A DNA stretch of 64,000 nt from Fibrobacterota bacterium (GTDB lineage Bacteria; Fibrobacterota; Chitinivibrionia; Chitinivibrionales; FEN-1185), in NCBI GenBank assembly GCA_003165595.1, contig PLWQ01000012.1:269542-333541 (forward strand). The letters are read 5' to 3'. The notes beneath the pieces are model-generated. The model saw only the letters and a program-made list of their open reading frames with translations, ran no database searches and was not told the DNA's origin. Both the position numbers and the translations under genes were made by a program. Each line of letters starts with the position of its first letter. The first letter of the stretch is position 1. This document shows, one piece after another, positions 2,951-18,785 of this stretch.

Positions 2951-5137
2951 TCAATCCCAATTGAAATTCGTATGGAGGTTGACAAAGAACGTACGTCCCT
3001 CCTCCGGATATCCTGCTTCTAAAAAGTAGTTCTTATCAGAGACATTCCTTACTCCCCCCTCGAATGACGCGTTTGCACCCAGAGGAACATTTAATGATGC
3101 ATTCCAGAGAGCGTACTCGGGAACCGTTGATCCTTGACTTGTCGTATAGCGCCAAGAATCGTATTCTGCACTTATAAGGGCATAGCATCCGGTGATCGGG
3201 GTATATTTGACATATCCGACGACTTTGCCCGGAGGTATGTCGGTAAATTTGATCGCCGGATGAGAGAGGTTGTGTTTGTCTAGATAGCTGGCGTTTGCGC
3301 CAATCTCCAACGCTTTCGCCCACTCAACATCGTGAAAAACCGTAGCGTCAAGGCTCAGTTCAACTCCCGGCATCTCGGCCTCACCGGTATTCTGCATCTG
3401 TGCACGTGCATTGGCATCCAGCACGCCTGCTTTAATCACGCTGTCAACCGACTGTATCGCATCATACAAATGCGTGTAGAAAAGGCTCACATGGCCGGAT
3501 AATGACCATTTCCCCAGATTCAATCCCGCATCATAGGCCGCCTCATAATTAACGGCATCTTCAGGTTGAAGAGTAGGATTGGGAATCGCCGTGCCCAGCT
3601 TGTAGGAATATCGATCCTTGAGCGTCGGGAACCTTGTCTTGCGCGCTATCGATATACTGGCATTCTGTGAACTATTGATATCAATTGTCGCCTTGCCCTC
3701 CGCATTAAAAGCTTGGGCGTTGTTGCTCGGGAAAGGGACTATCGAGTCAAAAACATTCTGAAATATCTTACCGTTGTAATGCGAGTAGAAATTGTCCGCT
3801 TCAACACTTGACCGGTTATCATAGGAAATTCCTCCTGTCAAGTTGAGAATCTTGAGAATAGTGGCGCCGTCCTCTAAACCAAGCGAAAACGTGTTGTCCT
3901 TGAAATGCCGTAAAGGCTCTTCCTGAAACGGTTTGGTGTTGGCTACCTTGACGGTGTCGTAGGCATTATGTTCTTCATGATAGTCTCGTTTGCCGTGAAG
4001 GGCGACACTCATCTCGTTTCCCGGAATAATGGTAGTGCCGAGTTCAACGGCGCCGCCTGCTGTCCAGTCATCATAATTGCTTTTAAAAGAAGACCTTTTC
4101 TTGAATGTCGAATAGGTCGAATCGTCACAAGCGAAAAGGCTGTTGCTCAACTCATTATAATAGACCGGAACCTTGAGGGAAAAATTATCGGAAAGCACGG
4201 TTTTTGAAGACAGGTAGACGCTCTGTTTGTCCCAATAGGGCCAATACCAGTAGCGTACCATGCCCGTGGGATCGACGGTCGGCGGTACACCTTTTTCCCC
4301 ATGTTGATTATCATAGGAGAGTGCATATTCATCACCTGGCGCCGGGTCCCACCCGATTTTTGCACTCGCCTTTGCATCACGGTGATATGAATTTGCGCGT
4401 AACCCGCCACTCTGGAGCACAGTCGGGGTAAATGCTTTCGACAACTCATAATTGCCTTTGTCAAGATCGGAAATCGAGCCCATCAGAAAAAAATTACCCA
4501 ATCGAGACCCTACGCCTATGTTCATGAGACTGCCGTTTAAATGGGGCATAAGCGTTGAGTCGCGCTTGGTGTCGACATACCCCATGGTGCCCACATCCGC
4601 TTGCAGTTCGAGCTTGTGCACCGGTTTCCGGGTAACCAGATTGATCGCTCCCCCAATTGCATTCGGGCCGTAGAGTACCGAAGAATATCCTTTTTCAACC
4701 TTTATTTCCGAATAATCGAACGTCGTGAAACGTCCCAGGTCGACATATCCGTCGTACGGCACATAAATCGGAACGCCGTCGATATAGAGGGGAACCGAGC
4801 GCAGATCAAATCCTCGGATATATACTTGCGACTCGTTTCTTGGACCGATATCGGAAACGTTTACTCCGGGAAGAAGCGAAAGTGCGCGGGCAACATCGGT
4901 GCGGCCGAATTCCTTCATTTGTGCACTGGTGACAACATCCTTATTCTGTTGTTTTTTCTCGCTGCCGGTGACAACAACGGTTCCAAGCGAAAAAACCGAT
5001 GATGTATCCTGCTTGAGCGCCGTGTCACGCTGACTTGTGCCGGTAACATCAGCGGCTCTCGATGGAAATGCATTTACTATAAGGCATAATGAAAACAGGA
5101 TTAAGGAGTGATTGGTTATTGGGTGCGCACGAGACAT
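2951..5137 (-). CDS. TonB-dependent outer-membrane receptor (plug plus 22-strand barrel type), substrate unknown
   Basis: 728 aa with a signal peptide. It has a TonB-box-like LGTVVVTG and plug motifs (IRGFDLRSVPLYIDGVPIY, YGPNAIGGAINLVT). The terminal aromatic barrel end is ...NLHTNFNWD. No N-terminal STN signalling extension is present. Confidence 0.9.
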   Translation of the reverse strand: MSRAHPITNHSLILFSLCLIVNAFPSRAADVTGTSQRDTALKQDTSSVFSLGTVVVTGSEKKQQNKDVVTSAQMKEFGRTDVARALSLLPGVNVSDIGPRNESQVYIRGFDLRSVPLYIDGVPIYVPYDGYVDLGRFTTFDYSEIKVEKGYSSVLYGPNAIGGAINLVTRKPVHKLELQADVGTMGYVDTKRDSTLMPHLNGSLMNIGVGSRLGNFFLMGSISDLDKGNYELSKAFTPTVLQSGGLRANSYHRDAKASAKIGWDPAPGDEYALSYDNQHGEKGVPPTVDPTGMVRYWYWPYWDKQSVYLSSKTVLSDNFSLKVPVYYNELSNSLFACDDSTYSTFKKRSSFKSNYDDWTAGGAVELGTTIIPGNEMSVALHGKRDYHEEHNAYDTVKVANTKPFQEEPLRHFKDNTFSLGLEDGATILKILNLTGGISYDNRSSVEADNFYSHYNGKIFQNVFDSIVPFPSNNAQAFNAEGKATIDINSSQNASISIARKTRFPTLKDRYSYKLGTAIPNPTLQPEDAVNYEAAYDAGLNLGKWSLSGHVSLFYTHLYDAIQSVDSVIKAGVLDANARAQMQNTGEAEMPGVELSLDATVFHDVEWAKALEIGANASYLDKHNLSHPAIKFTDIPPGKVVGYVKYTPITGCYALISAEYDSWRYTTSQGSTVPEYALWNASLNVPLGANASFEGGVRNVSDKNYFLEAGYPEEGRTFFVNLHTNFNWD

Positions 5138-5195
5138 AGGAATCCTTTCGGAAAAGAATGGATGAAAGTCCCCGGATTAGTTGCCTGACAAATAG

Positions 5196-5219
5196 CGTTA
5201 TATATTTTTCTATATTACG
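5196..5219. promoter_or_regulatory. ModE operator-like inverted repeat upstream of the TonB-dependent receptor gene
   Basis: CGTTATATA-TTTTTC-TATATTACG. It contains an exact TATAT-N7-TATAT and has ATCG/CGCT-type flanks. It lies 59-82 nt upstream of ATG 5137, in the 124-bp gap after the DUF364 gene. Confidence 0.65.
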
Positions 5220-5261
5220 ATGAGTGACATATGACTCCTTTGAATATGTTGACGAGGATAA

Positions 5262-6068
5262 TTACTCAGAACCTTTCAGATTCACTTCCGCAGCGCCGGA
5301 TCTGTCATCGAATAGTTTAGGGGAATCAGGCCTTGTGATGTTGATTTTCTGCAATGCGCCTTGCGGAGCATGCATAATGCTGCCTCCACCCATCCCGAAA
5401 TAGCGAAGAGTTTTGTTGACATCCATGATTCGTGAAGTGCCGAGCCGATGCAGACCCAATTTGAAGAGGCTGGGCGTGAGCGGCACCGTGGGCCCCATTA
5501 TGACACGGGTTGTTGCGTTAGGGGTCCTGCAAATTACCTCCCCGAACGTCCCGTTCACGAGCGTGAGCCCGGTCATGAATACCAGTTTCGCGCGGGAAAG
5601 CACGCCATGCGAATCGTCCCAACGGATGTCCCCCGGTCTGGGCAAAAGCTCCACAATCGATACCGGCCGCCCTTCATCGCGCCACATCTCCGCATCATGA
5701 AAATGGCCGATAAAGCAGGTTGGGCGTGTCTTGGTTTGCTCGGAAAACGGGTCTATTGCCGAGCTTACCGTGAATTCGGGAACCGGTGGGATCACGCATT
5801 TCAGGCAGGCCATGCCCACGGCAATCCGAAGAACGTCCGTCGAAGCGAGGTATTCTTGCGCGATTTCCGCCGCCTTCCGTCCAATCAGATCGCCCAGCCA
5901 GGTGTCCCGGGGATTTTCCGTGAGCCCGGGAGTGGCCGAGAAGCAGGTTGACATTTCATAGCGCCCGGCTTTGACCACCACCCAGTGATGGAAGAGATGG
6001 ATGTCCTCCATCAGAGTTGAATAGTCCGTGATAGCGGAAATGAGCGTTTCACGTACAATTGTTTCCAT
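5262..6068 (-). CDS. DUF364/DUF4213-family protein (putative heavy-metal chelation Rossmann-like fold), copy 2
   Basis: 268 aa. GHFHD...ELLPRPGDIRWDD...AKLVFMTGLTLVNGTFGEVI...VIMGPTVPLTP matches the DUF364 pattern. It is paralogous to 6111..6905. Confidence 0.7.
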   Translation of the reverse strand: METIVRETLISAITDYSTLMEDIHLFHHWVVVKAGRYEMSTCFSATPGLTENPRDTWLGDLIGRKAAEIAQEYLASTDVLRIAVGMACLKCVIPPVPEFTVSSAIDPFSEQTKTRPTCFIGHFHDAEMWRDEGRPVSIVELLPRPGDIRWDDSHGVLSRAKLVFMTGLTLVNGTFGEVICRTPNATTRVIMGPTVPLTPSLFKLGLHRLGTSRIMDVNKTLRYFGMGGGSIMHAPQGALQKINITRPDSPKLFDDRSGAAEVNLKGSE

Positions 6069-6110
6069 AAGATTTCTTCTTCTACAAGTCGAACAACAAT
6101 GTAACTCTAG

Positions 6111-6905
6111 TCACCTGACGTCGGCCGGATACAGCTTCACCATGTGCGCGCCCTGTTTGAAGATTGATCGGTCGCCTCCCTGCGCCACATGTTGCCAGAT
6201 CCTGTCGGCATCGATAACCGTGGTGCCGGCCAGGGACGCGATTCCTTTACTGAACCACAAAGGGGTCAGCGGGACACTCGGACCCACCATAACCATGCAG
6301 GCGTTGCGGCCCAATTCCATAAGCCGGGGCAATGTCTTGTTGGTAAACGTAACGCCGGTCATAAACAGGAAATCCTGATCTTCCAAAATGTATTCGCACG
6401 CCGGATCAGGGAAATCGCCCTCCAGGGGGTTCCGCTCCAGGATGGAAAGCCGGCACATGGTCGAAAGCTCGGCCAGGTCCGGAAAGTGACCCACCACGGT
6501 CACCTTCTTGCCGGTGAGCTCGGGTTTCATGACGATAAAGACACTCTCGTTGACCTGCGACTCCGGCTGAGTCTTCCAAACATTCGCCATAGTGGAAGGC
6601 GCATTGACATAGGCGTTGATCGCCGCAACACCAAGGGCCGCCTCATAGGGCTGCCACGACTTGACAAAAGCAGCGAGTTCACGCAACCTGCGGCCCTTGA
6701 AGGCTCCGGCGCCCGAAATGGAGTGGGAACCATGCGGAGGCGTCATGGCGACGCCAACCCCCACGGAACGCACGAGTGTCCAGTGAATGCCGACAAGCAC
6801 GTCGTCGACCACCAGGTCGTCGGGGATCAGCGAAATCAGTTGATCGTACAACTCCCACTTCGATGGAGTGGTTCCTGATGAATCGCGGGAATCCGAGTTC
6901 TTCAT
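6111..6905 (-). CDS. DUF364/DUF4213-family protein, copy 1
   Basis: 264 aa. VVGHFPDL...ILERNPLEGDFPDPACEYILEDQDFLFMTGVTFTNKTLPRLMEL...VMVGPSVPLTP. Its start overlaps the xdhC-like stop (ATGA). Confidence 0.75.
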   Translation of the reverse strand: MKNSDSRDSSGTTPSKWELYDQLISLIPDDLVVDDVLVGIHWTLVRSVGVGVAMTPPHGSHSISGAGAFKGRRLRELAAFVKSWQPYEAALGVAAINAYVNAPSTMANVWKTQPESQVNESVFIVMKPELTGKKVTVVGHFPDLAELSTMCRLSILERNPLEGDFPDPACEYILEDQDFLFMTGVTFTNKTLPRLMELGRNACMVMVGPSVPLTPLWFSKGIASLAGTTVIDADRIWQHVAQGGDRSIFKQGAHMVKLYPADVR

Positions 6906-7750
6906 TTCCCCTCCGATTTGTCAGGTGTGATGGTTCCCTCCTCATGCCAGGGAAATCTGAAATGCTCCGGCGTGCCTTTGTTGATGAGGAGGATTATCTG
7001 GGCCACTATTGCCAAAGCGATCTGCTCCGGAAGATTGTTGGCGATTTTCAAACCCACCGGCGAGTAGACCCTTTCATCAACATGTCCGCCCCTGGAACGG
7101 ATGTTGTTGACAACGATTCCGATTTTATTCTGGCTGCCGATCATGCCAATGTAGGGAACATCTTTGTTCCGAAGGATCTGTTCCAGACAAGTCTCGTCGT
7201 GTTTGTGCCCATGAGTCAGTATGACGCAGTAACTCGCACTGGTCAGCTTCATCGTCTCACTCAACGATTCATACGGTTTACATACACACTCGACTGCCGA
7301 AGGAAACCGTTCGGCGGATGAGAAATCTTCCCGGTTGTCAAACACGCGGTATGGCATATTGAGGATTTCGCAATACTTGGAAACCTTTTCACCGATATGG
7401 CCTCCGCCAAAAATCACGACTTCAGCCTCGGGCAAAACAGGCTCGATGAACACGGTTACCGATCCGCCGCAAAGGCCCTGCACCGTCCTGTCAGGTGTTA
7501 CCTGCCACAGGTCTCCCGCAAGAGAGAAATCCAAGCTGATGCAGCGGTTGTCTTTGATGGCCTTTAAAGCTTCTGCACGGCTGATGTGCTCAACCGGTCC
7601 TCCTCCGACCGAACCGGCAATCTCGTTCGCCACGCTCACCACCATCTTGGAGCCGACACCCCGTGGCACCGACCCTTCGGCCTTGACGATTGTGACGATC
7701 GCGCAGGCAATGCCCTTGTTCTTCCATTCATTCAAACTCTTGAGCCACAT
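6902..7750 (-). CDS. XdhC/CoxI-family accessory protein (molybdenum-cofactor handling family)
   Basis: ORF 6902..7789 trimmed to ATG 7750, which is preceded by AGGAG. The N-terminus has ACAIVTIVKAEGSVPRGVGSKMVV...GSVGGGPVE (XdhC_CoxI). A Rossmann-like VVIFGGGHIGEKV follows. Confidence 0.8.
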   Translation of the reverse strand: MWLKSLNEWKNKGIACAIVTIVKAEGSVPRGVGSKMVVSVANEIAGSVGGGPVEHISRAEALKAIKDNRCISLDFSLAGDLWQVTPDRTVQGLCGGSVTVFIEPVLPEAEVVIFGGGHIGEKVSKYCEILNMPYRVFDNREDFSSAERFPSAVECVCKPYESLSETMKLTSASYCVILTHGHKHDETCLEQILRNKDVPYIGMIGSQNKIGIVVNNIRSRGGHVDERVYSPVGLKIANNLPEQIALAIVAQIILLINKGTPEHFRFPWHEEGTITPDKSEGK

Positions 7751-7804
7751 GTTCGCTCCTTTCAACTTTGTGTGTATCCAACCGGACACGTGACGCGGCG
7801 GCCC

Positions 7805-8470
7805 TTACTCCATCCGATATTCCAACGGGAACTTCAAGATAACCCGTACCGGCGGATGGGGAAATGGGGCCGCCCGTCTGACCGTGGCAACGGCATCCCG
7901 ATCGAGTATCGAAGCCCCTGATCCCTTGAGTATCTCAATACTGTCAACGTCGCCGTCTTCGCGTACGCAGAATGAGAGTAAGACCGTGCCGGAGATTTTC
8001 ATTTCGAGCGCCATGGGCGGATAAACTGCTTTGCGGTAGATGATGTCCCGGATGTATTCGAACTGCTCTTTCAAATACCGCTGCCTCTCCCTCTCCCGCA
8101 CTTGGCCCGTGTCCTGCGGCATTCCTAGCGGGCCGATCGAGGCAACCTGGACCAACTGATTGTCAACTCCGCTTGGTTCGGCATCCGTGAACTGCGCCGT
8201 ATCGGCAATGATATCTTCGGCGGTTGTGTCGGGAAATTTCTCTTCTTCCTTAACCGGCGGAGGCGCGGGTCTTCTGGCGTGCCGAGGAGCCGGTTCCGGC
8301 ACGGGGACCGTTGATGCCGCCGGCTGTATCACCGGCGATTTCTCGATGTTAAAGTCGATCGTGAGCGTACGAGCCGCCGGAGCGGAAAACGCCGCAATGC
8401 CGGTAACGGCGGCGATAAAAACCCCATGGATCGTCAGCGACACAAGCGTTGCACGTTTCTGATACTTCAT
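7805..8470 (-). CDS. tonB: TonB energy transducer
   Basis: It has an N-terminal TM helix, a Pro-rich spacer (VPVPEPAPRHARRPAPPPVKEEE) and a C-terminal TonB domain (YPPMALEMKISGTVLLSFCVREDGDV...). Confidence 0.85.
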   Translation of the reverse strand: MKYQKRATLVSLTIHGVFIAAVTGIAAFSAPAARTLTIDFNIEKSPVIQPAASTVPVPEPAPRHARRPAPPPVKEEEKFPDTTAEDIIADTAQFTDAEPSGVDNQLVQVASIGPLGMPQDTGQVRERERQRYLKEQFEYIRDIIYRKAVYPPMALEMKISGTVLLSFCVREDGDVDSIEILKGSGASILDRDAVATVRRAAPFPHPPVRVILKFPLEYRME

Positions 8471-8847
8471 CGCACGGACTCCGTCTGCAAGCTGACCCGC
8501 GTGAACCCCCGGGTCTTGACGACATCGAGCACGTCCACGAACGTCTGAAGGGCAATTTTCCTGTCTGCGCGGATAAGGATCGGTGTGGACCGATCTATGT
8601 GCATGAGCGCCTCAAACAGCGCCCGTTGGCACACGGCAGAGGAGTTGTAGTAGATGGTGCCTGTGCGGTCGATCTCGATTGTCTGTATTCGCAGCAGATC
8701 CTCCCGGTTCTTGGATGCCTGCGGCAGCTGCAACGGGATGGATCCCGCCGCGACCAGCGTTGATGTGGTGAGCACGATGGTGAGCAGCACCAGCATCACG
8801 TCAACAAACGGTATCACGTTGATATAGTCGAATTCCTTTTCATCCAT
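8467..8847 (-). CDS. exbD: ExbD/TolR biopolymer transport protein
   Basis: ORF 8467..8970 trimmed to ATG 8847 ([26 protein letters not shown]...). It overlaps the exbB stop by 8 nt and the tonB start by 4 nt. Confidence 0.85.
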
Positions 8848-9262
8848 GATGAATGTCCCACTCAAGGAGCAGCCTTTTGACTTTCCGCAAAAGGAAATTA
8901 TAGAGTACCACGGACGGTATTGCGACAAGAAGGCCTGCCGCCGTCGCCTTGAGCGCCAGGGCAAGGCCAACCATGATCTTGCCCGTGTCCATGAATCCCT
9001 GGTTGCCCAGGGTGTAGAATGTCAACATGATGCCCAGCACCGTGCCCAGCAGGCCCACATACGGCGCGCTGCTGCCGATGGTGGCGATTACATGAACCCG
9101 GGACGTCAGCATGAGTTCCAGTTCCTTTTTGCTGCCAAAGTCGGCGGGCCGGATGCGGCGGTACGTGAGCCACCGTTCGATCGCCACGCTCACCGAGACT
9201 ACGCTGAGAAATACCAGAAGTCCGATGATGCCGAAGTCGATCCCGAATTTCAGCCATTCCAT
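8840..9262 (-). CDS. exbB: ExbB/TolQ/MotA-family proton channel
   Basis: 140 aa with three TM segments. The [17 protein letters not shown] signature is typical of ExbB/TolQ. Confidence 0.85.
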
Positions 9263-9292
9263 GGTTTACTTCCCATCGCCAGTGTCGTACGT

Positions 9293-10375
9293 TCAATGCG
9301 CAAGCGCCCGTTCCAGCAGCTCCGCGCATTCCGTGTCATTGAGCTTTTTGAAATAGAACAGTTCGTAGAATCGCCTTGTTTCTGCGCGCATGTCGATCTT
9401 CATCCGGTCCGGATACAGCAGATTGGCCAGCCACCGCAGGCCGATAATACGGTTGACAGAGGGCGGCCGATCGAACCAGCCGAAGGGCAGTGATGGTATC
9501 TCGAATACCTTCTTGTTCTTTACGGCATCGAGGTTCCGCCACGCGGGGTCGGACATGATTTTTGCGAAGTTTTCCGTGCCGTGCGCGAACCCGTGGTCCA
9601 CCTGCACGATGATCATCTCCGGTTTCCACAGCAGAAGCTGCTCGAACGAGACTGCTGCGCGGCCGTACCCGCGCACCATGGGTACATCGGCCACGTTATC
9701 TCCGCCCACCATATCAAGCACCTCGGCATGCGTTGACCCCTTCGGGTCCGTTTCCAGCCCGTTGAGTCCTTCGGCGTAGTAAACCCGTATACGCTTCTGC
9801 GCCGGCATCGACGCAACGACAGCGGCGACCGTATTGAGGGTCTGCCGGCAATAACCGGCAAGGGTATCGGCGCGGCGCTCCTCACCAATGAGGCCGCCCA
9901 CAAAGCGGTACGACGTGTCAAGCGATGTCAGCCGACCGTCGACCATCACCACCGGCGTTCCAAGTTGTTTCTCCATGCGCTCCGCTGCGGAAACGTCTGT
10001 TTTGTCAATATACCCCATCGACAGAACGATGTCGGGTTTCGCCTTGATGATCACCTCGGGGTTACCGGTGGTACTTTTGCCGAACCACCCTCCGAGAAGC
10101 GGTTTTTTGTTGTACTCCTCAACAAGGAATCGTCGTTCGTCCGCGTCAGGGTTCCATGTTGTGCCGGTGATTTTGCCGGGCGCAAGTGTGTACATCAACA
10201 CCTCGCCCATCGGCGACGTCGAGTAGACGGAACGTATGGCAGAAGGAATAGTGACATGGCGGCCTGCCATGTCCACGATCGTTCTTACGGAAGGAGACCC
10301 GGCCCAGCAGGCGCCCGTTGCGAGCGCCGCGAAGACCAGCACCGGAGTCATTACGCACAGATTCTTGTTTGTCAC
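9293..10375 (-). CDS. Periplasmic binding protein of a FecB/BtuF-type (chelate) ABC importer
   Basis: 360 aa with a signal peptide. It has a class-III binding-protein layout (RIVSxxP..., KPDIVLSMG, WKPEMIIV, FEIPSLPFGWFDRPPSVNRIIGLRW). Confidence 0.85.
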   Translation of the reverse strand: MTNKNLCVMTPVLVFAALATGACWAGSPSVRTIVDMAGRHVTIPSAIRSVYSTSPMGEVLMYTLAPGKITGTTWNPDADERRFLVEEYNKKPLLGGWFGKSTTGNPEVIIKAKPDIVLSMGYIDKTDVSAAERMEKQLGTPVVMVDGRLTSLDTSYRFVGGLIGEERRADTLAGYCRQTLNTVAAVVASMPAQKRIRVYYAEGLNGLETDPKGSTHAEVLDMVGGDNVADVPMVRGYGRAAVSFEQLLLWKPEMIIVQVDHGFAHGTENFAKIMSDPAWRNLDAVKNKKVFEIPSLPFGWFDRPPSVNRIIGLRWLANLLYPDRMKIDMRAETRRFYELFYFKKLNDTECAELLERALAH

Positions 10376-11148
10376 TTAGCACCTCCCATGGCCGGAACGC
10401 ACAAAAATCGGCCTTCCGCCACTGAAATAATATCAACGTCGATCCCATACATTCTTTTGAGCAGCGTACAGGTTAGCACTTCTTTGGGTGGACCGTCGGC
10501 CGCGATGCGGCCGTCCAGCAGCGCTATCACCCGGGTGGCGCACGCGAATGCGTGGTCCGGGACATGGGTCGTGATCATCACTCCCATGTCTTGGGTTGCA
10601 AGTTCACGGATAAGATTCAGCGCCCGGATCTGGTTGCCGAAATCAAGGTGCAACGTGGGTTCGTCCATGATGAGAAATTGCGGCGACTGCGCCAGCGCGC
10701 GCGCGATCAGCACCAGTTGGCGTTCACCCCCGCTAATCTGCGCGTAGTTGCGGTCGCACAGATGACCGATATGCAGCAGGTCCATGACGCGCGCCGCTTC
10801 GCGCCTGTCATCCGCCGAGGGAATGGAGAAGGCGCCGATAAAGGGCGTCCTTCCCATGAGCACGACGTCCATGGCGCTGAAGGGAAATGGCGGGATGTGG
10901 ATCTGTGGGACATAGGCCAGCGTCCGAGCTCGTTCCCGCGTTGTGAACGTGCAGGCGGACCGCTGATCGAATTGGATATCTCCTCGCGAGGGAATGAGCC
11001 CAAGAATCGCCTTGAAAAGCGTGGTCTTGCCCGAGCCGTTGGGTCCCAGCAAGCAGACGACCTCGCCCGAATGCAACGATGCGCTGATTTCCGAAATAAC
11101 CGTGCGCGACCCGTATCCCGCCGATATGTTGCTTATCGCCAGTTTCAT
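10372..11148 (-). CDS. ABC transporter ATP-binding protein (FecE/BtuD-like)
   Basis: This is the real 258-aa product inside ORF 10372..12042 (MKLAISNISAGY...). It has Walker A GPNGSGKTT, signature ISGGERQ and Walker B LIMDEPT. ATGA overlaps occur at both ends. Confidence 0.9.
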   Translation of the reverse strand: MKLAISNISAGYGSRTVISEISASLHSGEVVCLLGPNGSGKTTLFKAILGLIPSRGDIQFDQRSACTFTTRERARTLAYVPQIHIPPFPFSAMDVVLMGRTPFIGAFSIPSADDRREAARVMDLLHIGHLCDRNYAQISGGERQLVLIARALAQSPQFLIMDEPTLHLDFGNQIRALNLIRELATQDMGVMITTHVPDHAFACATRVIALLDGRIAADGPPKEVLTCTLLKRMYGIDVDIISVAEGRFLCVPAMGGAK

Positions 11149-12308
11149 ACCCACCCCCTGCGCCCCCGGGCGAGCAGGAATACGAAAAACGGCGCGCCGA
11201 TGATCGCGGTCAGGATGCCGATGGGTATCTCGATGGGGAACGCGACGCGCGCCACGGTGTCGACGACGAGTAGGAACGTACCGCCCAGGAGCAGCGATGC
11301 GGGGAGCAGCACCGGGAAAGAGGGGCCCACCAGCATACGCGCCAGGTGCGGAACCACCAACCCGATCCAGCCGATCATACCGCTGATGGACACCGCCGCG
11401 GCGGTCATGAGCGTTGAAGACACGATCGCGATCGCCCGTATCCGACCCGCGTCCACTCCCATGGCTTTGGCTTCCTCGTCGCCGAACGAGAGTACGTTGA
11501 TCCGCCACCGCACGAGGAGTAAAGGGATTGCGCCCGCTACGGTCGCGATTGCGGCGATGCGGGCGTCGGACAAATTGACCGAGGCCAGGCTTCCCATGAG
11601 CCAATAGGTGATCGCGGGGAGCTTTGAGTATGGATCGGCGACATACTTGACAAGCGAAAGCAAGGCGGAAAACAGGGTGCCGGTCACGATGCCGCACAGT
11701 ACGAGCGTCAATGTCTTTTCTCCGCGCTTTCCGACAAAGGCGGACAGCATGACCGTGGCAAACACCGAGACAAGGCCAAAGCCAAAGGAAAAAAGCTGGA
11801 TCCCGACCACCCCGACCGAAAGCAGTATCGCCAGGGCCGCACCGAACGCCGATCCCGCGGTGACACCCAGAAGAGAAGGATCCACCATGGGGTTGCGGAA
11901 TATACCTTGGTAGCACGCGCCAGAACCCGACAGGGCCATGCCGACAAGAACCGCCGCACACATGCGCGGCAGACGGACATGGAACAAAACGGTGCTGCTT
12001 GCACCGAACACCATGGTGTCGTGGTGCCATAGTGATTTCCACACCAAGTGCAGCAGTTCACCGATACTGACGGGGTAACGTCCAACTGTCAAGGCTGCCA
12101 CGGCCATCACGCACAGGGCGATCGCCAGGCCAGCCAGAACCAGGGGTCCCTTTGGCCCCACAGAATTGACCGACTGGTTTGTTGTGCCGCCGTTCGTTCC
12201 TTTGTGCGTCTCTGCGGTCCCGGCAGTTGCCAGATGAGAATTAGCCGGTTCCGGACCATGCGGCTGATCATTCTTGACAGGCGGTTTACTCGTGGTGTTC
12301 GGTATCAT
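11145..12308 (-). CDS. FecCD/BtuC-family ABC permease
   Basis: ORF 11145..12833 trimmed to ATG 12308 (MIPNTTSKPP...). It has about 9-10 TM segments. GILTAIIGAPFFVFLLARG at the C-terminus is typical of FecCD. Confidence 0.85.
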   Translation of the reverse strand: MIPNTTSKPPVKNDQPHGPEPANSHLATAGTAETHKGTNGGTTNQSVNSVGPKGPLVLAGLAIALCVMAVAALTVGRYPVSIGELLHLVWKSLWHHDTMVFGASSTVLFHVRLPRMCAAVLVGMALSGSGACYQGIFRNPMVDPSLLGVTAGSAFGAALAILLSVGVVGIQLFSFGFGLVSVFATVMLSAFVGKRGEKTLTLVLCGIVTGTLFSALLSLVKYVADPYSKLPAITYWLMGSLASVNLSDARIAAIATVAGAIPLLLVRWRINVLSFGDEEAKAMGVDAGRIRAIAIVSSTLMTAAAVSISGMIGWIGLVVPHLARMLVGPSFPVLLPASLLLGGTFLLVVDTVARVAFPIEIPIGILTAIIGAPFFVFLLARGRRGWV

Positions 12309-12322
12309 CGAAAGTTGATGTG

Positions 12323-12874
12323 TCAATGTGCCGTGTAGTAGCTGCCAGACGAGCAGGCCATGCATACCGGCCCTTTTTCCCCGATTGTATCCTTGCCGTC
12401 GAAGACCTTTTCTCCGCACTCGACGCAGGTGACAACCCGCTTTGGCTTTCCGGGCATCTCTTCGGGCCGCAGGTTGACCTTCACTTCCCGCCATGCGAGC
12501 ATCTCTTCGTCCGGGATGTAAAGTGCCTGTCGAACCGCATCTTCGTCTTCGCCGTTGATCGTGCGATCCATGGCAACGTTTAGACGCCATGAATGGTTCG
12601 TGGTGACATTCATGAATGTCGCGGCCATCCTGCCGTAGTCCTTGAGTTTGAAGCTCCGCCGCCCCAGGCGCGTACCGGTGACCGTCTGGATGGCGTCGGC
12701 GATGCAGCGATCGTTCTCCACCACGACGATCAGGTCCTTGTAGGTGGACGGCGCCGCCAGGGACAACCCCTTGACGGCAAGGCGCACTCCCAGCACCTGC
12801 CCCATGCAGAGGTGACCGTGGAATGTGACGCATTTGTCCAGAAGCTCGCCGAGTTCTTCCTTTGTTTTGCTCAT
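12323..12874 (-). CDS. FmdE-family protein with C-terminal zinc ribbon
   Basis: ORF 12323..12892. MSKTKEEL is the likely start at 12874. It has the FHGHLCMGQVLG motif (FmdE FHGHxCPG type) and a C-terminal CVECGEKV...CMAC ribbon. Confidence 0.8.
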   Translation of the reverse strand: MSKTKEELGELLDKCVTFHGHLCMGQVLGVRLAVKGLSLAAPSTYKDLIVVVENDRCIADAIQTVTGTRLGRRSFKLKDYGRMAATFMNVTTNHSWRLNVAMDRTINGEDEDAVRQALYIPDEEMLAWREVKVNLRPEEMPGKPKRVVTCVECGEKVFDGKDTIGEKGPVCMACSSGSYYTAH

Positions 12875-12991
12875 GATATTCAGCCTCATCACACTAAGGT
12901 TATGTTACCTCATTGAAATACCTTCGGAAACAGCTCATGAATTATGTTTACCCCGAAATTGACAGAATAAGAAGACAATGTCTTGCAGTTT

Positions 12992-13015
12992 CGTAATATA
13001 CCTATTTATACAACG
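12992..13015. promoter_or_regulatory. ModE operator-like inverted repeat upstream of the fmdE-ABC-exbBD-tonB-xdhC-DUF364 operon
   Basis: CGTAATATA-CCTATT-TATACAACG, flanked by TT/AA. The minus-strand reading TGTAT-N7-TATAT has one mismatch to the core. It lies 118-141 nt upstream of ATG 12874. Its left half is identical to a half-site of the 5196-5219 box. Confidence 0.55.
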
Positions 13016-13139
13016 AAAGCACAAAAAAACTTCCGCTGCATACAGCCACGGAAGCCTTGTGTTCACTCATCAACCGCAATGATTGTCTGCGAAGCGTTGA
13101 ACACCTCGCAGGATTTGTCATATCATGAAGAAATACAAA

Positions 13140-13910
13140 TCAAGAAATGGCATCGTAGGTTGCCTTCACGGCGGCGACTAGAATAACGACAGCGAACACG
13201 CGTTGGAGCATACAGCAAGAGATCTTCTTCTCTGCTAGCGTCGCGCCGCAAAGTCCGCCGATGAGCGCAGCCCCTGCCAACGGCAAGACGATACTCAACT
13301 CAATTCCACCTCTAATTCCATGTGCTGCTAACCCAATGCCTGACAATGCTAATACCAGGACGGAATTCATTGCAGCCATCTGTTTTGGTCCTGCCAATCC
13401 GAGAAATAGAATGAGCGGCCCGAGAAACACGCCGCCCCCAATTCCCAGGAAACCTGAAAGGAACCCGATAACAAGCCCTGCCGGGATTCCTATTAAGAAA
13501 AGACGAAGACGCCCCGGATCTTTTTCCTGCTCTTGAGCATTTGGCGCAGCTCGAAACATCGCGATGGCGGCGATTGCAAGGGTTGCCGCCAATAATGCAA
13601 AAAATATCTTCCGATCGGCTGTTATGAATCCACCCAGGAATGCAGCCGGCATGGCGGGTAATAAAAACGGCAGGATAAGTCTCCAATTCAAACGTCCGGC
13701 CAAACCGAAACGCAGTAATGCCGCCCCCGTCACTACAATGTTTAACAACAAGACAGTTGGCGTCATTGCAGCAGCGGACATTCCACAGAGGGACAAGATG
13801 GCAAGATATCCTGTGCCGCCACCGAGGCCGACGGATGCATATGCCCCGGCAACAACCATAACCAAAGGCACTAGAAGTAGAAAAGTCCCAAGCGTCAATG
13901 TATCTGACAT
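13140..13910 (-). CDS. TauE/SafE (TSUP) family anion permease
   Basis: 256 aa with about 8 TM segments. It shows a Gly-rich internal duplication (GLGGGTGYLAILSL / GIGGGVFLGPLILFL). Confidence 0.85.
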   Translation of the reverse strand: MSDTLTLGTFLLLVPLVMVVAGAYASVGLGGGTGYLAILSLCGMSAAAMTPTVLLLNIVVTGAALLRFGLAGRLNWRLILPFLLPAMPAAFLGGFITADRKIFFALLAATLAIAAIAMFRAAPNAQEQEKDPGRLRLFLIGIPAGLVIGFLSGFLGIGGGVFLGPLILFLGLAGPKQMAAMNSVLVLALSGIGLAAHGIRGGIELSIVLPLAGAALIGGLCGATLAEKKISCCMLQRVFAVVILVAAVKATYDAIS

Positions 13911-13933
13911 TTCATTCTCGCATTACCATTAAG

Positions 13934-14830
13934 TTATTTGCTTGCTTTTTGCTTGCCGGTCACCGCAAGGGGAAAGTTGGTCTGGCGTTTGAATTTTTGT
14001 ACGCCGGAATTGGCTATGTACTCCTGTATTTTCGGGGAAGTCAGATACCCTATGAAAGTCATTGCATCAACGTAATGGGCGTCCGGATATTTCTGCGGGT
14101 TTGCAGCCAGGACCTCATAGGCGGTTACCAGCTTATTGTCCATGTTACCGTCGACCATGACGTTCATATCAAGGGTTTCCTGCTGTTGTATGAATGAAGG
14201 ATAATGGACAATCGTATATCCCCTCTTTCTATTCGCTATCACGAGGGTCGCGTCCGTGCCGGCATTTGTTGTGATATACCAGTCGCCCTTTGGCTCAATC
14301 TTCGCCAGTTTCCACATTTTCATTTCCAATCCGTAAGTGCCGGAGTTGTCTCCCCGGGAGAAAAACAGCGCTTTCTTCTTTGCTATAATTTTGAGCGCCT
14401 CGGTCGGGTCTTTCATTCCCCTTATACCCGCCGGGTCTTCCTTGGGACCGACAATCGCGAAGATCGAATACATCACTTCTCTTAAATTGACCAAATATCC
14501 GTCGGCTACGAGTTTGTTTTCAATATCCTTTTCGTGCCCTATAAAAACATCTATTGGTTGCGCACTGTCGGAACGCATGAGTTTGTCCCCGTCTCCGGTG
14601 CACAAGTTTAATTTCTTAATGGGTATGTTGTACTCTTTTGTGAACATGCCGATGAGTTCATCCGGCAGTTCGGTGGAGCAAAGGGTGGCTGGGAAAATTA
14701 CTGCGAGCGTTTTTGAATCTCTTGATTCCGGAGGGGTTGGTTGAGCCGACATCACGGGTAAACCCGCCAAGGATATCAGGACTGCTGAAAAACATAACAA
14801 CCTGATACCTGAGACTTTGCCTCTAAGCAT
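13934..14830 (-). CDS. TupA-like periplasmic substrate-binding protein (PBP-like_2 family), orphan
   Basis: 298 aa with a signal peptide. FFSRGDNSGTYGLEMKMWK resembles the SRGDxSGTHxxExxLW motif of tungstate-binding TupA. The N-terminal anion-binding TTTS/DSGL motif is not conserved (ATLCSTELPDEL). No tupBC genes are adjacent. Confidence 0.6.
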   Translation of the reverse strand: MLRGKVSGIRLLCFSAVLISLAGLPVMSAQPTPPESRDSKTLAVIFPATLCSTELPDELIGMFTKEYNIPIKKLNLCTGDGDKLMRSDSAQPIDVFIGHEKDIENKLVADGYLVNLREVMYSIFAIVGPKEDPAGIRGMKDPTEALKIIAKKKALFFSRGDNSGTYGLEMKMWKLAKIEPKGDWYITTNAGTDATLVIANRKRGYTIVHYPSFIQQQETLDMNVMVDGNMDNKLVTAYEVLAANPQKYPDAHYVDAMTFIGYLTSPKIQEYIANSGVQKFKRQTNFPLAVTGKQKASK

Positions 14831-15878
14831 GAATCCTCCCTGTTTTTACAGAACAGATTTGATTATTTCCGTTCAAAGGCCCGAATCCCTGTTCGTTGAG
14901 CCCTTTTTCCTGCCAGAAAACACGCACTTTGAATTTATTTTCGTTAGCCTCTTTGCCGAAAAGCTGCAGGTGATCCGCCTTTTTCCCAGGGGTATATTCA
15001 GAAGCGTAAATACAATCGCAGAGGGACTGAACAGCCGCATATATCTTCTGCTTGACGGCAGTACTCTTTTCGGATTCTGATTCGACAGCCGTCATTTGTT
15101 GCTGATACGTTATTCTGCCATTTTCAGCTAATACCGTCTTTTGCCCTTTATTCAGTACTATTTCTTCTAAGGGATATTTAATTACTAATTTCCCCTCAAA
15201 CACGATGCAGGTCGTTTCCGTTTTTAATACACCATTTTCCAGTCTCGCGACCGTTTGTATCTTTGAATTTGTATTCCTTGAAAGTAATAATCCGTCGGGA
15301 GTCTCAATCTGAAGTTCTTTATCTCCCGACAGAAGCGATATTTCCCCACGCGATAATGCTATGTGCCGTGAGCCTTTAACCCTGACCATCGTATTATGGT
15401 GAATCTGTAATTCGTTTTTGCTTTCCAGACTTATGGCTGCAGTGGTACTGTCTCCCGTATATAACTCGTCGCCCGACTTAATATTTTCAAATTGCGCGAT
15501 TTTGAACCTTTCCGACAGATTTTCAACATACCCTATATTCTTGTTGGCCAGGCACGCGTATGACAATATGGCAACCAGCAGCACAAAAAAGCCGGCAAGA
15601 GCAGGCCTTAGCTTGGGGTTGAATAGGGGTCTGAATATGGAACGAGGTTCTTTACTTGTTGATTGATTAAGACTATCCAATATTCTCTTTTCAATATTCG
15701 GCAGAACATCTTCAGGAGCCTTCTCCAGCGAACCTTTCTGGGAGCCGAGAGCCAAGATAAACTGGTGGAAATTCTTGCATTCTTTGCAATCACTCAGGTG
15801 TTCTTGTATTTCGATCGGCACAACAGTATCACTAAGATCATTCTCCTTTAGATACTTTTCAAAAATATCACATTTCAT
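14823..15878 (-). CDS. Anti-sigma factor (zf-HC2 N-terminus, one TM, FecR-like periplasmic domain)
   Basis: HLSDCKECKNFH is a zinc-finger motif. A TM helix follows at ALAGFFVLLVAILSY, then a beta-rich FecR-like region. Its stop overlaps the next gene's start (ATGCTTAG). Confidence 0.75.
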   Translation of the reverse strand: MKCDIFEKYLKENDLSDTVVPIEIQEHLSDCKECKNFHQFILALGSQKGSLEKAPEDVLPNIEKRILDSLNQSTSKEPRSIFRPLFNPKLRPALAGFFVLLVAILSYACLANKNIGYVENLSERFKIAQFENIKSGDELYTGDSTTAAISLESKNELQIHHNTMVRVKGSRHIALSRGEISLLSGDKELQIETPDGLLLSRNTNSKIQTVARLENGVLKTETTCIVFEGKLVIKYPLEEIVLNKGQKTVLAENGRITYQQQMTAVESESEKSTAVKQKIYAAVQSLCDCIYASEYTPGKKADHLQLFGKEANENKFKVRVFWQEKGLNEQGFGPLNGNNQICSVKTGRIHA

Positions 15879-15935
15879 ATGGAGTATCCCCTATAATGAA
15901 TAGACACCGAAGACCCATCAACGGTTACAACTATT

Positions 15936-16511
15936 TTAGAAAATGTTTTTGAACTTGTTGTAGAGAAACTGCCGTCCCCTAAAGAGCTGTATTTTTACGT
16001 TTGAAGCGGACGTCTTGAAAATCCCGGCTATTTCCTGGCAAGTTTGACCTGAAATATAATAAAGTATGAACATTTGTTTTTGTTCCAACGGCAGGAAAGA
16101 AATCACATCATCGACTACTTGTCTTAGTTCCTCAGCATCAAATTCCATGTTCGCGTCAGATAGTTCTCTTAACCTCTTCCCCTTTTCATCGACAAAAGGC
16201 CTCAATTCCGATTCTGCAATAACGAATCTGTTCTTCTTGTCTCTCCAATAATTTTTAACCTGGTTTACGGCAATCGTGTAAAGCCATGTCAGAAGCGAAC
16301 TTTCCTTTCTGAAGTTTTTGAGATTCGAAAACGCCTTAAGAAAGACGTTTTGAGTGATATCTTTCGCATCTTCCCGATTCTTTATGGATCTCAAAACAAG
16401 GGTATATATCCGGTCTTGATACTTTACGGTAATATTGCTGAACGCCCGAACGTTCCCCTGCAGGGTTTGGTCTATCCACAGAAAATCACTGGTTTCATCA
16501 CTATTTGTCAT
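15936..16511 (-). CDS. ECF (group IV) RNA polymerase sigma factor
   Basis: 191 aa. Region 2 is AKDITQNVFLKAF...SSLLTWLYTIAVNQVKNYWR. Region 4 is GQTCQEIAGIFKTSASNVKIQLFRGRQ. Confidence 0.9.
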   Translation of the reverse strand: MTNSDETSDFLWIDQTLQGNVRAFSNITVKYQDRIYTLVLRSIKNREDAKDITQNVFLKAFSNLKNFRKESSLLTWLYTIAVNQVKNYWRDKKNRFVIAESELRPFVDEKGKRLRELSDANMEFDAEELRQVVDDVISFLPLEQKQMFILYYISGQTCQEIAGIFKTSASNVKIQLFRGRQFLYNKFKNIF

Positions 16512-16610
16512 AGAATTTATTTGTCGGATATGACTTCGTTCTTACAAAATGACACTTTAATATACTATGACCCCGTATTTCGGGATAACACTTATCAAAG
16601 AGGCCATGGC

Positions 16611-17537
16611 ATGCCAAAAAATATCATGTTTTCAATTTCCTTGCTTGTCTTTCTTCTCCTGCAAAACCTTTACGGGAGCAGCGAAGGGTTACGGGAACAG
16701 GCAAGAATGCTGGAAAATTATGAGCATGTTGAAATCAATTCAATCATCGACACCATTAAGAAAGATTTACTTTCGGAAGATGCTTTAGTGCAGGATGCCG
16801 GATGTATCATACTGTTAAAAACGCTTGAACGGCTCAAGCAGGGCGACGGAAAGGCGGAACTTGTATTTGCCCAATTATCCGGTGACAAAAAAGCAGTCAA
16901 TGCTGCGGCCGACATAATTGATTCGAGATTGCTGGGATGGTACAGCCGGGCAAAGGCGGATGAAAACGACGATGACATACAACTATACACTCCCCTGTTC
17001 TATATCCTCGGGAAAGCAGACGACAGAAGCGCCAGGGGAACGCTGGTCAGGTCAATTCTCTATCTTAGCGGCCGCAAGGATATTCTCGAAGGAATACCCA
17101 TGAGCGAGGAAATGGTTGCGGTTTCATTGAGAAGACTTGCGGTAATCGAAGAAAAGCTGTGCTGCGTTTATCCGGGAAGAGATTTCGTTATTGAGATGCT
17201 GGATAAGGATTCACGATTCGACATGCTGGATATATTCGAAACTTTTCTTCTGGCGAATAAGAACCTCAGCGAGAAAACGAAAAAGGAAATAAAGGAATTT
17301 GTCACCGACTGCATGGGGTATGGGGATTCGAAAAACGGCTATTTGATCCGAATCAAGGCGGTAAAAATAGCCGCGATACTTGTGAAAAATGGAGAAAATG
17401 ATCTGACGAGCAAAATCGAGGATTTGTCGAAAAACGACCCATATTATGTACACAAATCTACTGGCAAGGCAGGATATAGCATGACGGAATTGATTTATCC
17501 GGTGAGGGAAATCGGTTCGAAAATCCTCCTGCGCTAA
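16611..17537 (+). CDS. Secreted alpha-helical-repeat protein, function unknown
   Basis: ORF 16350..17537 trimmed to ATG 16611 (MPKNIMFSISLLVFLLLQNLYG is a signal peptide). It is AT-richer than neighbouring genes and divergent from the ECF sigma gene. No motif recognised. Confidence 0.45.
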   Translation: MPKNIMFSISLLVFLLLQNLYGSSEGLREQARMLENYEHVEINSIIDTIKKDLLSEDALVQDAGCIILLKTLERLKQGDGKAELVFAQLSGDKKAVNAAADIIDSRLLGWYSRAKADENDDDIQLYTPLFYILGKADDRSARGTLVRSILYLSGRKDILEGIPMSEEMVAVSLRRLAVIEEKLCCVYPGRDFVIEMLDKDSRFDMLDIFETFLLANKNLSEKTKKEIKEFVTDCMGYGDSKNGYLIRIKAVKIAAILVKNGENDLTSKIEDLSKNDPYYVHKSTGKAGYSMTELIYPVREIGSKILLR

Positions 17538-17552: not shown

Positions 17553-18305
17553 TCATTTCATCATGATCTTGCCTAGCGGCGATGCGCCAGGATGGCTCGT
17601 AAGGTACTCTTCCCATGTTGTCCAGGATGGGGTAGTCCCCGTATGACAATCTTTGCAATCTCCCTTGTCAAAAACGCCATTGATGTGGCGTGACCAATCA
17701 ACGGTTCCGGTGCCCACGTTGTACAAAGAATCTGTAAGAGATTTTCCGTGACAATTGAAACAATATTGCACATTCGCACCCTGCACCTGGTTCCCCAGGC
17801 TATCCTTTTTCCCGTTGCGTGAATGCCCGTAATGGCCGGCATACATCCCGGGGGAAGTCGTACTCAAGTCGTGGCAGGCCCTGCAATTGGCAGGATCAAC
17901 CGTATCCGTACCATTCCAATGAACGGAAGCATGGGTTCCCTGCGGGATACCGCCGTGACAATAGACGTTGTTGCATTGCTTTGAGGCTTTGGTGAAACTT
18001 GCTTTGCCGCTGTCGTCCCAGGGAGAGGAAAAAACGACGTCGGTATCGCCGTTCCTGTGGGTCACGGGATTTACGATAAAAGAGTCAGTCATTGAGTCCA
18101 TTGCATATCCCTTGTGACAATACGAGCATTTATAGCCAATCCCGGCAACGTGGTATGTATGCCCGGCGTCGGCGGGAGGAAGCGCGTGACAGCTTCCGCA
18201 ATTTGCCTTCGTTATCACAAGCGGTGCCGGTTCGGTCGCTTTCTGGGCGCAGTTGACTGCTGCCAGCAACATCCCGGCCGCAAAGATCTTAATGAGTGTT
18301 TTCAT
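17553..18305 (-). CDS. Multihaem c-type cytochrome lipoprotein (5 CxxCH plus 1 CxxxxCH)
   Basis: ORF trimmed to ATG 18305, which is preceded by GGAGG. It has a lipobox LLAAVNC. Haem motifs are CGSCH, CSYCH, CNNVYCH, CRACH, CFNCH and CKDCH. This resembles the Geobacter-type CxxxxCH...CxxCH domain family. Confidence 0.85.
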   Translation of the reverse strand: MKTLIKIFAAGMLLAAVNCAQKATEPAPLVITKANCGSCHALPPADAGHTYHVAGIGYKCSYCHKGYAMDSMTDSFIVNPVTHRNGDTDVVFSSPWDDSGKASFTKASKQCNNVYCHGGIPQGTHASVHWNGTDTVDPANCRACHDLSTTSPGMYAGHYGHSRNGKKDSLGNQVQGANVQYCFNCHGKSLTDSLYNVGTGTVDWSRHINGVFDKGDCKDCHTGTTPSWTTWEEYLTSHPGASPLGKIMMK

Positions 18306-18785
18306 CGTAGCCCGGCCTCCTGTCGTAAAGAGCACGAATTTCCTGTCCAGCAGTACATGGCGCAGTTGACCGCGCCCCTCGTCAGAGTATCGTTAACCTT
18401 CAATGAAAAATATAGGTGTTTGCGGACGCCATCGTCAAGAAAGGAAAAACCAGGCATGTGGTTTTTTCTCAAAGCCTATTCTTTGGCGGTGGCCCGCCAA
18501 AGGTTCCGTGCTTCTCCATGTCCAAGCCAACGGGAATATAGCCCTGGATTATGAATTTCCCTGAGCAGGCATTGAAATAAATGAACAAAGGATACAAGCA
18601 GGAGCGGAAGTGAAAAACCCCGCCGCACACCGCGACTACGACTGCATATTTACCTACAGGAGTAGCCGCTTTGCGAACTGCGGGGCATCTTCCATCCATA
18701 AGGAAGAAGAACTTCATGGTCGTTTGCTAACCCCGGAGCACCACCACTACGGCTGCGAACCTTCGGGGTTAGTAAACGTTGGAAT

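Follow-up and report, generated by a model that had tools for sequence, protein, structure and literature searches.

A candidate three-component ECF signalling operon, with a TupA-derived binding protein, beside a molybdenum/tungsten island of a Fibrobacterota bacterium

The subject here is a 64,000-nucleotide stretch of a Fibrobacterota contig (PLWQ01000012.1), called the window below, and within it four genes that follow one another on the minus strand and encode a sigma factor of extracytoplasmic function (ECF) type, a putative anti-sigma factor, a secreted periplasmic binding protein derived from TupA, and a permease of the TSUP (TauE/SafE) family. The reading favoured, tentatively and at somewhat under an even chance, is that they form a self-contained and probably autoregulated ECF signalling operon of the molybdenum/tungsten (Mo/W)-type oxyanion economy, in which the binding protein is the partner of the anti-sigma factor. 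Function is inferred throughout from sequence, from models and from the gene neighbourhoods of uncultured organisms.

The coordinates of the open reading frames (ORFs; Table 1) agree with the four contiguous minus-strand genes of the original prediction, an earlier reading of the letters of this DNA, and the three junctions that it had described read the same in the sequence: 57 nt (15879-15935) lie between the sigma and anti-sigma genes, the stop of the anti-sigma gene and the start of the binding-protein gene overlap by the 8 nt ATGCTTAG (14823-14830), and 23 nt (13911-13933) precede the TSUP gene. Where does the unit begin and end? It extends from a conserved block upstream of the sigma gene to a hairpin and T-run past the TSUP gene, the 50-nt segment with the hairpin having a minimum free energy of -18.8 kcal/mol. 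A consensus promoter/terminator scan, in which match counts equalled those of shuffles, missed this hairpin, probably because of its long interrupted loop. With the likely terminator in place, and with the ModE-like boxes of the neighbourhood outside the unit, the four genes are therefore taken to be a separate transcription unit beside the operons controlled by such boxes. A 1.18-Mb metagenome scaffold (L171) contains the operon with 100% identity, and the same four-gene order is present in the independent metagenome contigs L013, L020 and L001; given that recurrence, chance alone does not account for the arrangement. Among named relatives the nearest are genome bins of Fibrobacterota and Chitinivibrionales. 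The sigma, anti-sigma and binding-protein genes, together with a gene divergent from them, have a G+C content of 0.40-0.47 and the TSUP gene one of 0.52 (13140-17537), a marked composition step from the FmdE/ABC genes at 9293-12892 (0.58-0.62, with third-position G+C, GC3, up to 0.75); low G+C is found also in other genes of the neighbouring island, beyond the ECF unit, and the step is therefore not read as a sign of horizontal transfer.

Table 1. Features of the four-gene unit, of its flanks and of its anti-sigma factor in the window
Feature	Coordinates	Strand	Remarks
ECF sigma gene	15936-16511	minus	191 aa
Anti-sigma gene	14823-15878	minus	
Anti-sigma cytoplasmic domain, residues 1 to ~87	15620-15878	minus	zinc-type anti-sigma motif; helical AlphaFold2 model
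Anti-sigma transmembrane helix, residues 88-111	15546-15617	minus	hydrophobic; one long modelled helix
Anti-sigma periplasmic FecR-fold beta domain, residues 116-261	15096-15533	minus	pLDDT 80-94
Anti-sigma C-terminal tail, residues 262-351	14826-15095	minus	invariant C287-x-C289 and H303; lineage-restricted
TupA-derived periplasmic binding-protein gene	13934-14830	minus	298 aa; secreted
TSUP (TauE/SafE) permease gene	13140-13910	minus	256 aa
Conserved block just 5' of the sigma start codon	16512-16545	minus	AACGAAGTCATATC at 16527-16540
Hairpin then T7, likely intrinsic terminator of the four-gene unit	13023-13056	minus	GGCTTCCGTGGCTGTATGCAGCGGAAG then TTTTTTT
ModE-like box 5' of the FmdE/FecCD/ExbBD/TonB operon	12992-13015	minus	CGTTGTATAAATAGGTATATTACG; marks the border of the ECF unit, outside it
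ModE-like box 5' of the TonB-dependent receptor gene	5196-5219		
ModE-like box 5' of the anion-porin gene	727-750		

That the first gene encodes an ECF sigma factor, as had been proposed, is confirmed by matches to two Pfam models, Sigma70_r2 with 55.6 bits and Sigma70_r4_2 with 39.9, and to NCBIfam TIGR02937 (91.5 versus a cut-off of 42.9); regions sigma-2 and sigma-4 only are present, with a score above the family threshold, which makes it a member of sigma-70 group 4. The best specific models are those of the RpoE and SigW types, each scoring below its own cut-off. Directly in front of the sigma gene, a block of the form AACGAAGT-N4-TC..GAC..ATAAAT..ATG is kept in the window and in L005, L008, L013, L020 and L175 (L175 and L176 carry it as AACGAAGTTATTTC), and the sequence farther upstream is not conserved among those loci. 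The block is a candidate for an autoregulated ECF promoter or leader.

The anti-sigma factor is modelled as a single-pass protein with a predicted zinc-binding domain, a periplasmic domain of FecR fold and a unique Cys/His tail. In an alignment of 40 homologues C3, H27, C31 and C34 are invariant, and by sequence motif the N-terminal H-x3-C-x2-C with its upstream Cys places the protein in class I of the zinc-binding anti-sigma (ZAS) domains. It had been described as FecR-like, and this holds at the level of the fold because in Foldseek the beta domain matches the C-terminal signalling domain of PupR (6ovk, E = 3.3e-8) and a Parabacteroides anti-sigma factor (4m0n, E = 7.6e-6), though the Pfam FecR score of 18.7 bits is under the cut-off of 24. 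Among the 40 homologues C224, C287, C289, H303 and a KFKVRVFW block are the invariant parts of the periplasmic region, and the tail pattern SLCDCI...H...KFKVRVFW is strongly conserved; residues 277-351 come out of AlphaFold2, given the 40 sequences, with pLDDT ~30 and unmodelled. A FecR docking subdomain for a TonB-dependent transducer was not recognised, the Foldseek match spanning only 141 columns, and the unique tail appears to replace that canonical subdomain. How unique is it? Residues 262-351 have 10 representatives among the 1.84 billion proteins searched, and in that collection no remote homologue of the tail was found outside its own anti-sigma family. Possibly it is a metal- or partner-binding element. 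The database search gave 53 clusters of anti-sigma homologues, at least 24 of them from a contig equal in size to one that bears a binding protein of the clade to which the third gene belongs.

By fold that third protein is close to TupA: its AlphaFold2 model (pLDDT 87.8) has target-normalised TM-scores of 0.89 to the Geobacter sulfurreducens TupA 3lr1 and 0.86 to the Desulfovibrio alaskensis TupA 5my5, with 29-35% sequence identity to the two, and the PBP_like_2 model gives 51 bits. The curated equivalog model for TupA itself, NCBIfam NF041772, gives 110.6 bits against a cut-off of 400. Around the protein the database search delineates a distinct clade of ~73 clusters with 46-95% identity and 263-637 bits, a range below which the canonical TupA proteins fall with at most 192 bits. 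In Desulfovibrio TupA the site residues are Thr9-11 and Ser12 (TTTS), His59, Arg118, Thr124 and Asp170 (PMC5517513). The clade keeps His59 as H99, Arg118 and Thr124 as R159 and T165 of the loop S158-R159-G-D-N-S-G-T165, and a canonical Tyr as Y238. Replaced throughout it are TTTS by FP(A/V)T (F46-P47-A48-T49 in the window protein), a Gly by an invariant Cys77, GMG by GTD, Asp-Arg by His209-Tyr210, with H209 at the place of Asp170, and an Asn by Thr236. It had been noticed earlier that the SRGDxSGT motif was kept and the N-terminal anion-binding motif lost, and both are so, the former as SRGDNSGT and the latter by the change of TTTS to FPAT. These measures mark it as derived from TupA without being TupA itself, a protein of TupA fold whose anion site is half kept and half replaced; because the pocket is remodelled, the exact ligand species is uncertain. 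The current annotation of the clade as 'tungstate transport substrate-binding protein' is probably wrong in detail. Genes of tupB/tupC type adjoin in neither the window nor any clade locus, where the neighbours are of mod or FecCD type. An absence of any ABC partner had been claimed, and stands for TupB/TupC-type genes; it does not stand more widely, as the genes of an ABC importer of FecCD type, which has a Peripla_BP_2 protein of its own, start ~250 nt downstream.

What of this is conserved beyond the window? The order sigma, anti-sigma, binding protein is found in 10 of ~11 related arrangements, TSUP in only 6. The four-gene order of the window (and L171-174), L013, L020 and L001 is varied in L167 by a ModD gene between binding protein and TSUP, followed by a ModE-like box, porin, modA, TOBE and modBC. 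In other loci the three genes lead into porin and modABC, with a 47-nt gap and no box (L008/9), a modA-type ABC system (L005/7), thioredoxin and DsbD (P0048 contig), unrelated genes (L012 and L177) or the end of the contig (L010). From L175/176 (6397-8812) the binding-protein gene is cleanly missing, leaving sigma, anti-sigma and TSUP; FmdE is also absent there, and a perfect ModE-like box follows TSUP. Clade members without a sigma gene stand between a ModE-like box and porin-modABC (L019, L087), between a MacB-type ABC system and hemerythrin (L002-4), beside a convergent ABC system (L011), or between a 770-800-aa protein of no known family and sulfatase-like and Fe-S proteins (L017/18/21/22/115). 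The conserved core is sigma, anti-sigma and binding protein; the transporter genes downstream vary. When the anti-sigma/binding-protein junction is compared in the window and 9 other arrangements, the ORFs overlap by 8 nt in the window, L001, L013 and L020, by 11 nt in L008/9 and by 71-74 nt in L010 and L012. In L177 the two ORFs are 33 nt apart.

Two further matters concern these relatives. The 750-800-aa proteins encoded upstream of distant clade binding proteins were considered as TonB-dependent receptors, and Pfam ruled this out: it identifies the large protein of L019 as a propeller of BNR/sortilin type that bears a type IX secretion tail, and those of L021 and L115 have zero Pfam matches. 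A sulfatase-like protein of the alkaline-phosphatase superfamily (~310-340 aa) is a recurring neighbour that is absent from the window, its gene lying just upstream of sigma in L005 (4930-5952), L008 (1186-2160) and L175 (5345-6388) and just downstream of the distant-clade binding protein in L021 (4545-5468) and L115 (8879-9805); the two sets are homologous (E = 2e-32).

Is the binding protein then the periplasmic ligand sensor for the anti-sigma factor? This, one of two possibilities raised in the original prediction, is the model that fits the comparative data best, though its chance is put below even. In its favour are the gene order, conserved while the transporter genes change, the way the binding-protein gene keeps to the anti-sigma gene where it is split from porin-modABC, the ORF overlaps and the apparent lack of a Fec route. 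The canonical form of that route seems unavailable because the TonB-dependent receptor of the adjoining Mo/W island (2951-5137; a Plug from residue 63 and a barrel) has no signalling (STN) domain, and so does not qualify as a Fec-type transducer, and because the anti-sigma factor has no recognisable docking subdomain. Several observations weigh against the model or the wider reading of the operon. In L175/176, with no binding-protein gene, the anti-sigma tail is still conserved, so an anti-sigma factor can persist without an adjacent gene of that kind and an obligate partnership is disfavoured. The two genes are apart in L005 (+423 nt) and L167 (+145 nt). The binding-protein gene has its own strong Shine-Dalgarno sequence, so the level of its product need not follow that of the anti-sigma factor; its sigma-less orthologues are part of a transport operon, as would suit a protein that simply serves transport. 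All the loci are from one lineage, and some of the synteny is therefore shared ancestry. As to the candidate ECF promoter, a search with the block across the window gave 5 matches versus 3.8 expected by chance, none of them upstream of a transport gene, so that no further copy above chance was found there, and the block fits no known -35/-10 pattern or standard spacing.

Part of this speaks also for a somewhat unlikely alternative, in which the binding protein is cargo and not sensor: a substrate-binding protein, used as an alternative or for scavenging, that hands a Mo/W species to ModBC or another ABC permease, much as Sbp and CysP share one sulfate permease, with the anti-sigma factor sensing through its Cys/His tail and the ECF pair controlling expression only. 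The intact anti-sigma factor of L175/176 and the strong ribosome-binding site would suit it, as would the invariant C-x-C, His and Cys residues of the tail, which could bind ligand; each sigma-less orthologue opens a ModE-box-controlled operon of binding protein, porin and modABC, in which ModA is encoded too, and modA-type transporters come directly after the binding protein in L005 and L008/9. It is less easily squared with the behaviour of the binding-protein gene which, once split from porin-modABC, stays with the anti-sigma gene (window, L013, L020, L012 and L177) and in most loci overlaps it; also, a TupB/TupC-type partner is absent, and that a TupA-type protein could dock on ModB is hypothetical. 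The sensor model remains the one preferred.

The other possibility raised at the outset, that binding protein and TSUP make up a binding-protein-dependent secondary transporter comparable to the TRAP and TTT types, fares worse. The identity of the permease is not at issue, as Pfam TauE gives 107.1 bits (cut-off 32.6) over residues 17-249 and the size is that of a ~250-aa family member, just as had been assigned. A gap of at most 23 nt between the two genes in the window, L013, L020 and L001, and the lack of TupBC, are what invite the idea. The model predicts tight co-occurrence of the carrier with its binding protein, and this is not seen. TSUP follows the binding protein in only ~5 of ~15 clade arrangements, and the binding protein occurs without it in L005/7, L008/9, L012, L177, the P0048 contig and all sigma-less clade members; L175/176 have TSUP without the binding protein; homologues with 69-74% identity stand alone among unrelated genes in L168, L169 and L170, one of them a Kiritimatiellales genome; and the TSUP family is far larger, with more than 370 close homologue clusters, many standing alone, versus the ~73 of the binding-protein clade. 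The claim of a binding-protein-dependent TSUP is thus unsupported, and such a carrier is considered very improbable. A literature search found no papers tying TSUP to molybdate transport. A ModD (QRPTase-like) gene and a second, more distant type of TSUP recur in relatives (L019 3713-5503, L167 8900-10672, L175 4351-5211; the L167 ModD scores 208 bits with TIGR01334), from which it may be that TSUP permeases are a regular part of Mo/W handling in the lineage.

Could the permease instead work outwards, the unit sensing an excess of periplasmic oxyanion and switching on TSUP to export it? Those members of TauE/SafE that have been characterised are exporters, and Pfam TauE, in which this one falls, is described as a sulfite exporter. 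In the window, L013 and L020 the unit carries no membrane cargo other than TSUP that is not regulatory, a CpxP/Spy-like metal-resistance gene lies near the unit in L020, and there is the precedent of CnrYXH, an ECF system with a periplasmic metal sensor that governs efflux by CnrCBA. Detoxification is nevertheless thought quite improbable: in relatives the unit precedes uptake genes, namely those for an anion-selective porin, modABC and ModD, and in the window it sits in an uptake island; sequence does not tell which way TSUP transports, and favours neither uptake nor efflux.

That uptake island, of Mo/W type, takes up positions 1-13 kb of the window and comprises a Porin_O_P-like gene, ModE (903-1709), a di-TOBE protein, the TonB-dependent receptor, two DUF364 genes, XdhC, TonB, ExbD, ExbB, an importer made up of Peripla_BP_2, ATPase and FecCD components, and FmdE; at the window start the stretch with the porin gene, after which modABC presumably comes, is cut off. 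Its three ModE-like boxes are near-palindromic (consensus CGTTRTATA-N6-TAYATWACG), and each is intergenic and 5' of a minus-strand Mo/W operon; the same type of box is found at matching positions in L001, L019, L087, L167 and L175/176. The original prediction had the operon abutting a Mo/W island with such a box 125 nt from its 3' end. Abutment and distance, the latter counted from the TSUP stop, are right, and since the box lies 100 nt upstream of the FmdE gene it belongs to the FmdE operon and not to the ECF operon. In the window no ModE-like box lies upstream of sigma, and the ECF operon is in that respect outside the ModE regulon. The Mo/W link is otherwise strengthened, as ModE-like boxes occur directly upstream of the sigma-less orthologues of L019 and L087, 44-55 nt from the binding-protein start. 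With ModD, modA and TOBE genes as neighbours of clade binding proteins, these boxes tie the clade to the Mo/W regulon.

They bear too on whether the ligand is something other than molybdate or tungstate, for instance a thiometallate, an oxyanion of sulfur, or a metal in chelated or cationic form, in which case the Mo/W neighbourhood would reflect no more than a shared regulon or ancestry. Replacement of half the TupA ligand residues throughout the clade would be in keeping with such a ligand, as would those clade members whose neighbours are MacB-type ABC/hemerythrin genes, or else sulfatase-like, Fe-S and HGD-D genes; the retention of H99, the S158-T165 loop and Y238 is not, nor are the boxes in L019 and L087 or the modA, ModD and TOBE neighbours, and this alternative is rated unlikely. 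For the favoured reading, of a signalling operon of the Mo/W-type oxyanion economy, the arrangements suggest a possible origin, in a series from L019/L087, with a ModE box, through L008/9, where sigma and anti-sigma genes precede the binding protein and porin-modABC, to the window, where TSUP comes after the binding protein. Such a series points to insertion of an ECF pair ahead of a ModE-box-controlled binding-protein gene, which would have come under periplasmic and probably substrate-dependent control, a parallel to the Fec logic, in which Fur is combined with FecIR and has the part that ModE has here.

Several observations concern the surroundings of the unit. The part of the island from 2951 to 12892 is an apparent ModE-box-controlled, TonB-dependent uptake island with DUF364 'heavy-metal chelation' genes, and looks like one for the uptake of chelated Mo/W species and not of free oxyanion; a literature search found no papers describing TonB-dependent molybdate uptake or a chelated Mo/W system of this kind. 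Within it the ORFs 10372-12042 and 11145-12833, which are G+C-rich, are judged over-extended from the gene calls on the identical scaffold L171, the real genes encoding a 258-aa ATPase and a 387-aa FecCD permease. On the other side, divergent from sigma, 16614-17537 on the plus strand encodes a secreted protein of 307 aa that matches nothing in Pfam or NCBIfam and whose homologues are beside sigma in L001, L005, L013, L020 and L177 and beside ModE in L019 and L175. After it, on the minus strand (17553-18335), comes a gene for a multihaem cytochrome with a Geobacter-type CxxxxCH...CxxCH motif and MtrC/MtrF-like domains, conserved beside Mo genes in L019, L171 and L175.

How might a sensor of this kind work? 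The binding protein would be the periplasmic ligand-binding partner of the anti-sigma factor, in the manner of RseB or CnrX, and would stand in for the TonB-dependent transducer of Fec-type systems. Its ligand-dependent closure would alter its hold on the periplasmic part of the anti-sigma factor, the anti-sigma factor would then be inactivated, and sigma would transcribe its own operon, giving more binding protein and more of the transporter that follows, TSUP in the window and porin-modABC in relatives. TSUP itself would be an ordinary stand-alone secondary anion permease and not a binding-protein-dependent carrier, and the substrate-induced control would complement ModE repression of the neighbouring operons. 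The most specific version, in which an ECF sigma/anti-sigma switch has taken on a TupA-derived Venus-flytrap protein to sense its ligand, and this protein docks on a FecR-fold anti-sigma factor by way of the Cys/His tail, replacing the TonB-dependent transducer, is possible, and is held with appreciable doubt.

Were this so, what would it add? Binding proteins are known to pass ligand information to histidine kinases and chemoreceptors, and a literature search found no papers coupling a substrate-binding protein, TupA included, to an ECF anti-sigma factor. ECF systems would have a fourth means of sensing the periplasm, in addition to outer-membrane transducers, modulators of RseB type and metal sensors of CnrX type. 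Control of molybdenum and tungsten acquisition has so far been explained by the cytoplasmic repressor ModE, and this would be the first example of its positive control from the periplasm; a TupA-derived subfamily with a Cys/His-bearing pocket would also be defined. Should the sensor idea fail, what is left is an ordinary ECF operon with two transport-related cargo genes.

In gene order and proposed mechanism the closest known system is that of E. coli envelope stress, RpoE-RseA-RseB-RseC. In rpoE-rseA-rseB-rseC too an ECF sigma factor, a single-pass anti-sigma factor, a secreted periplasmic protein and an inner-membrane protein are encoded in that order, the window sigma factor scores best on RpoE-type models, and the modulator role proposed for the third protein matches that of RseB. 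Unlike RseB, the third protein has a TupA-type Venus-flytrap fold; unlike RseA, the anti-sigma factor has a periplasmic part made of a FecR fold and a novel tail; and unlike RseC, the fourth protein is a TSUP permease, the context being Mo/W uptake and not envelope stress. In concept the nearest is CnrH-CnrY-CnrX of Cupriavidus metallidurans, where a separate periplasmic protein binds an inorganic ligand, controls a membrane anti-sigma factor and so regulates the transport genes for that ligand. However, CnrX is a small helical sensor of metal cations, CnrY is a very short anti-sigma factor, the output is efflux, and the proteins have no homology to those of the window.

FecI-FecR-FecA and PupI-PupR-PupB are closest in the fold of the anti-sigma factor (the PupR match above). 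As in Fec, substrate-induced uptake would be layered on a metal-responsive repressor, Fur there and ModE here, and TonB, ExbBD and a receptor are encoded nearby. The differences are that the nearby receptor is without an N-terminal signalling domain, that the docking subdomain of FecR is replaced by the Cys/His tail, that the cytoplasmic domain has an H-x3-C-x2-C zinc motif, and that the sigma factor is nearer to the RpoE and SigW types than to the other models listed. For the binding protein, TupA of TupABC is closest in fold (TM 0.86-0.89), and counterparts of His59, Arg118 and Thr124 are conserved in it, as is the SRGDNSGT loop; setting it apart are FPAT for TTTS, His209 for Asp170, the clade-invariant Cys77 and the GTD motif, the score of 110.6 against 400, the lack of tupB and tupC genes, and the joining of its gene to an anti-sigma gene. 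The analogy with TRAP and TTT carriers fails on the co-occurrence of TSUP. In LuxP-LuxQ, TorT-TorS, ChvE-VirA and PstS-PhoR a periplasmic Venus-flytrap protein likewise recognises the ligand on behalf of a membrane partner other than an ABC transporter, but in binding-protein-dependent sensors of this sort the known partners are histidine kinases or chemoreceptors and not anti-sigma factors. None of the systems compared fits as a family assignment for the whole unit, which is best placed as a variant of three-component ECF signalling.

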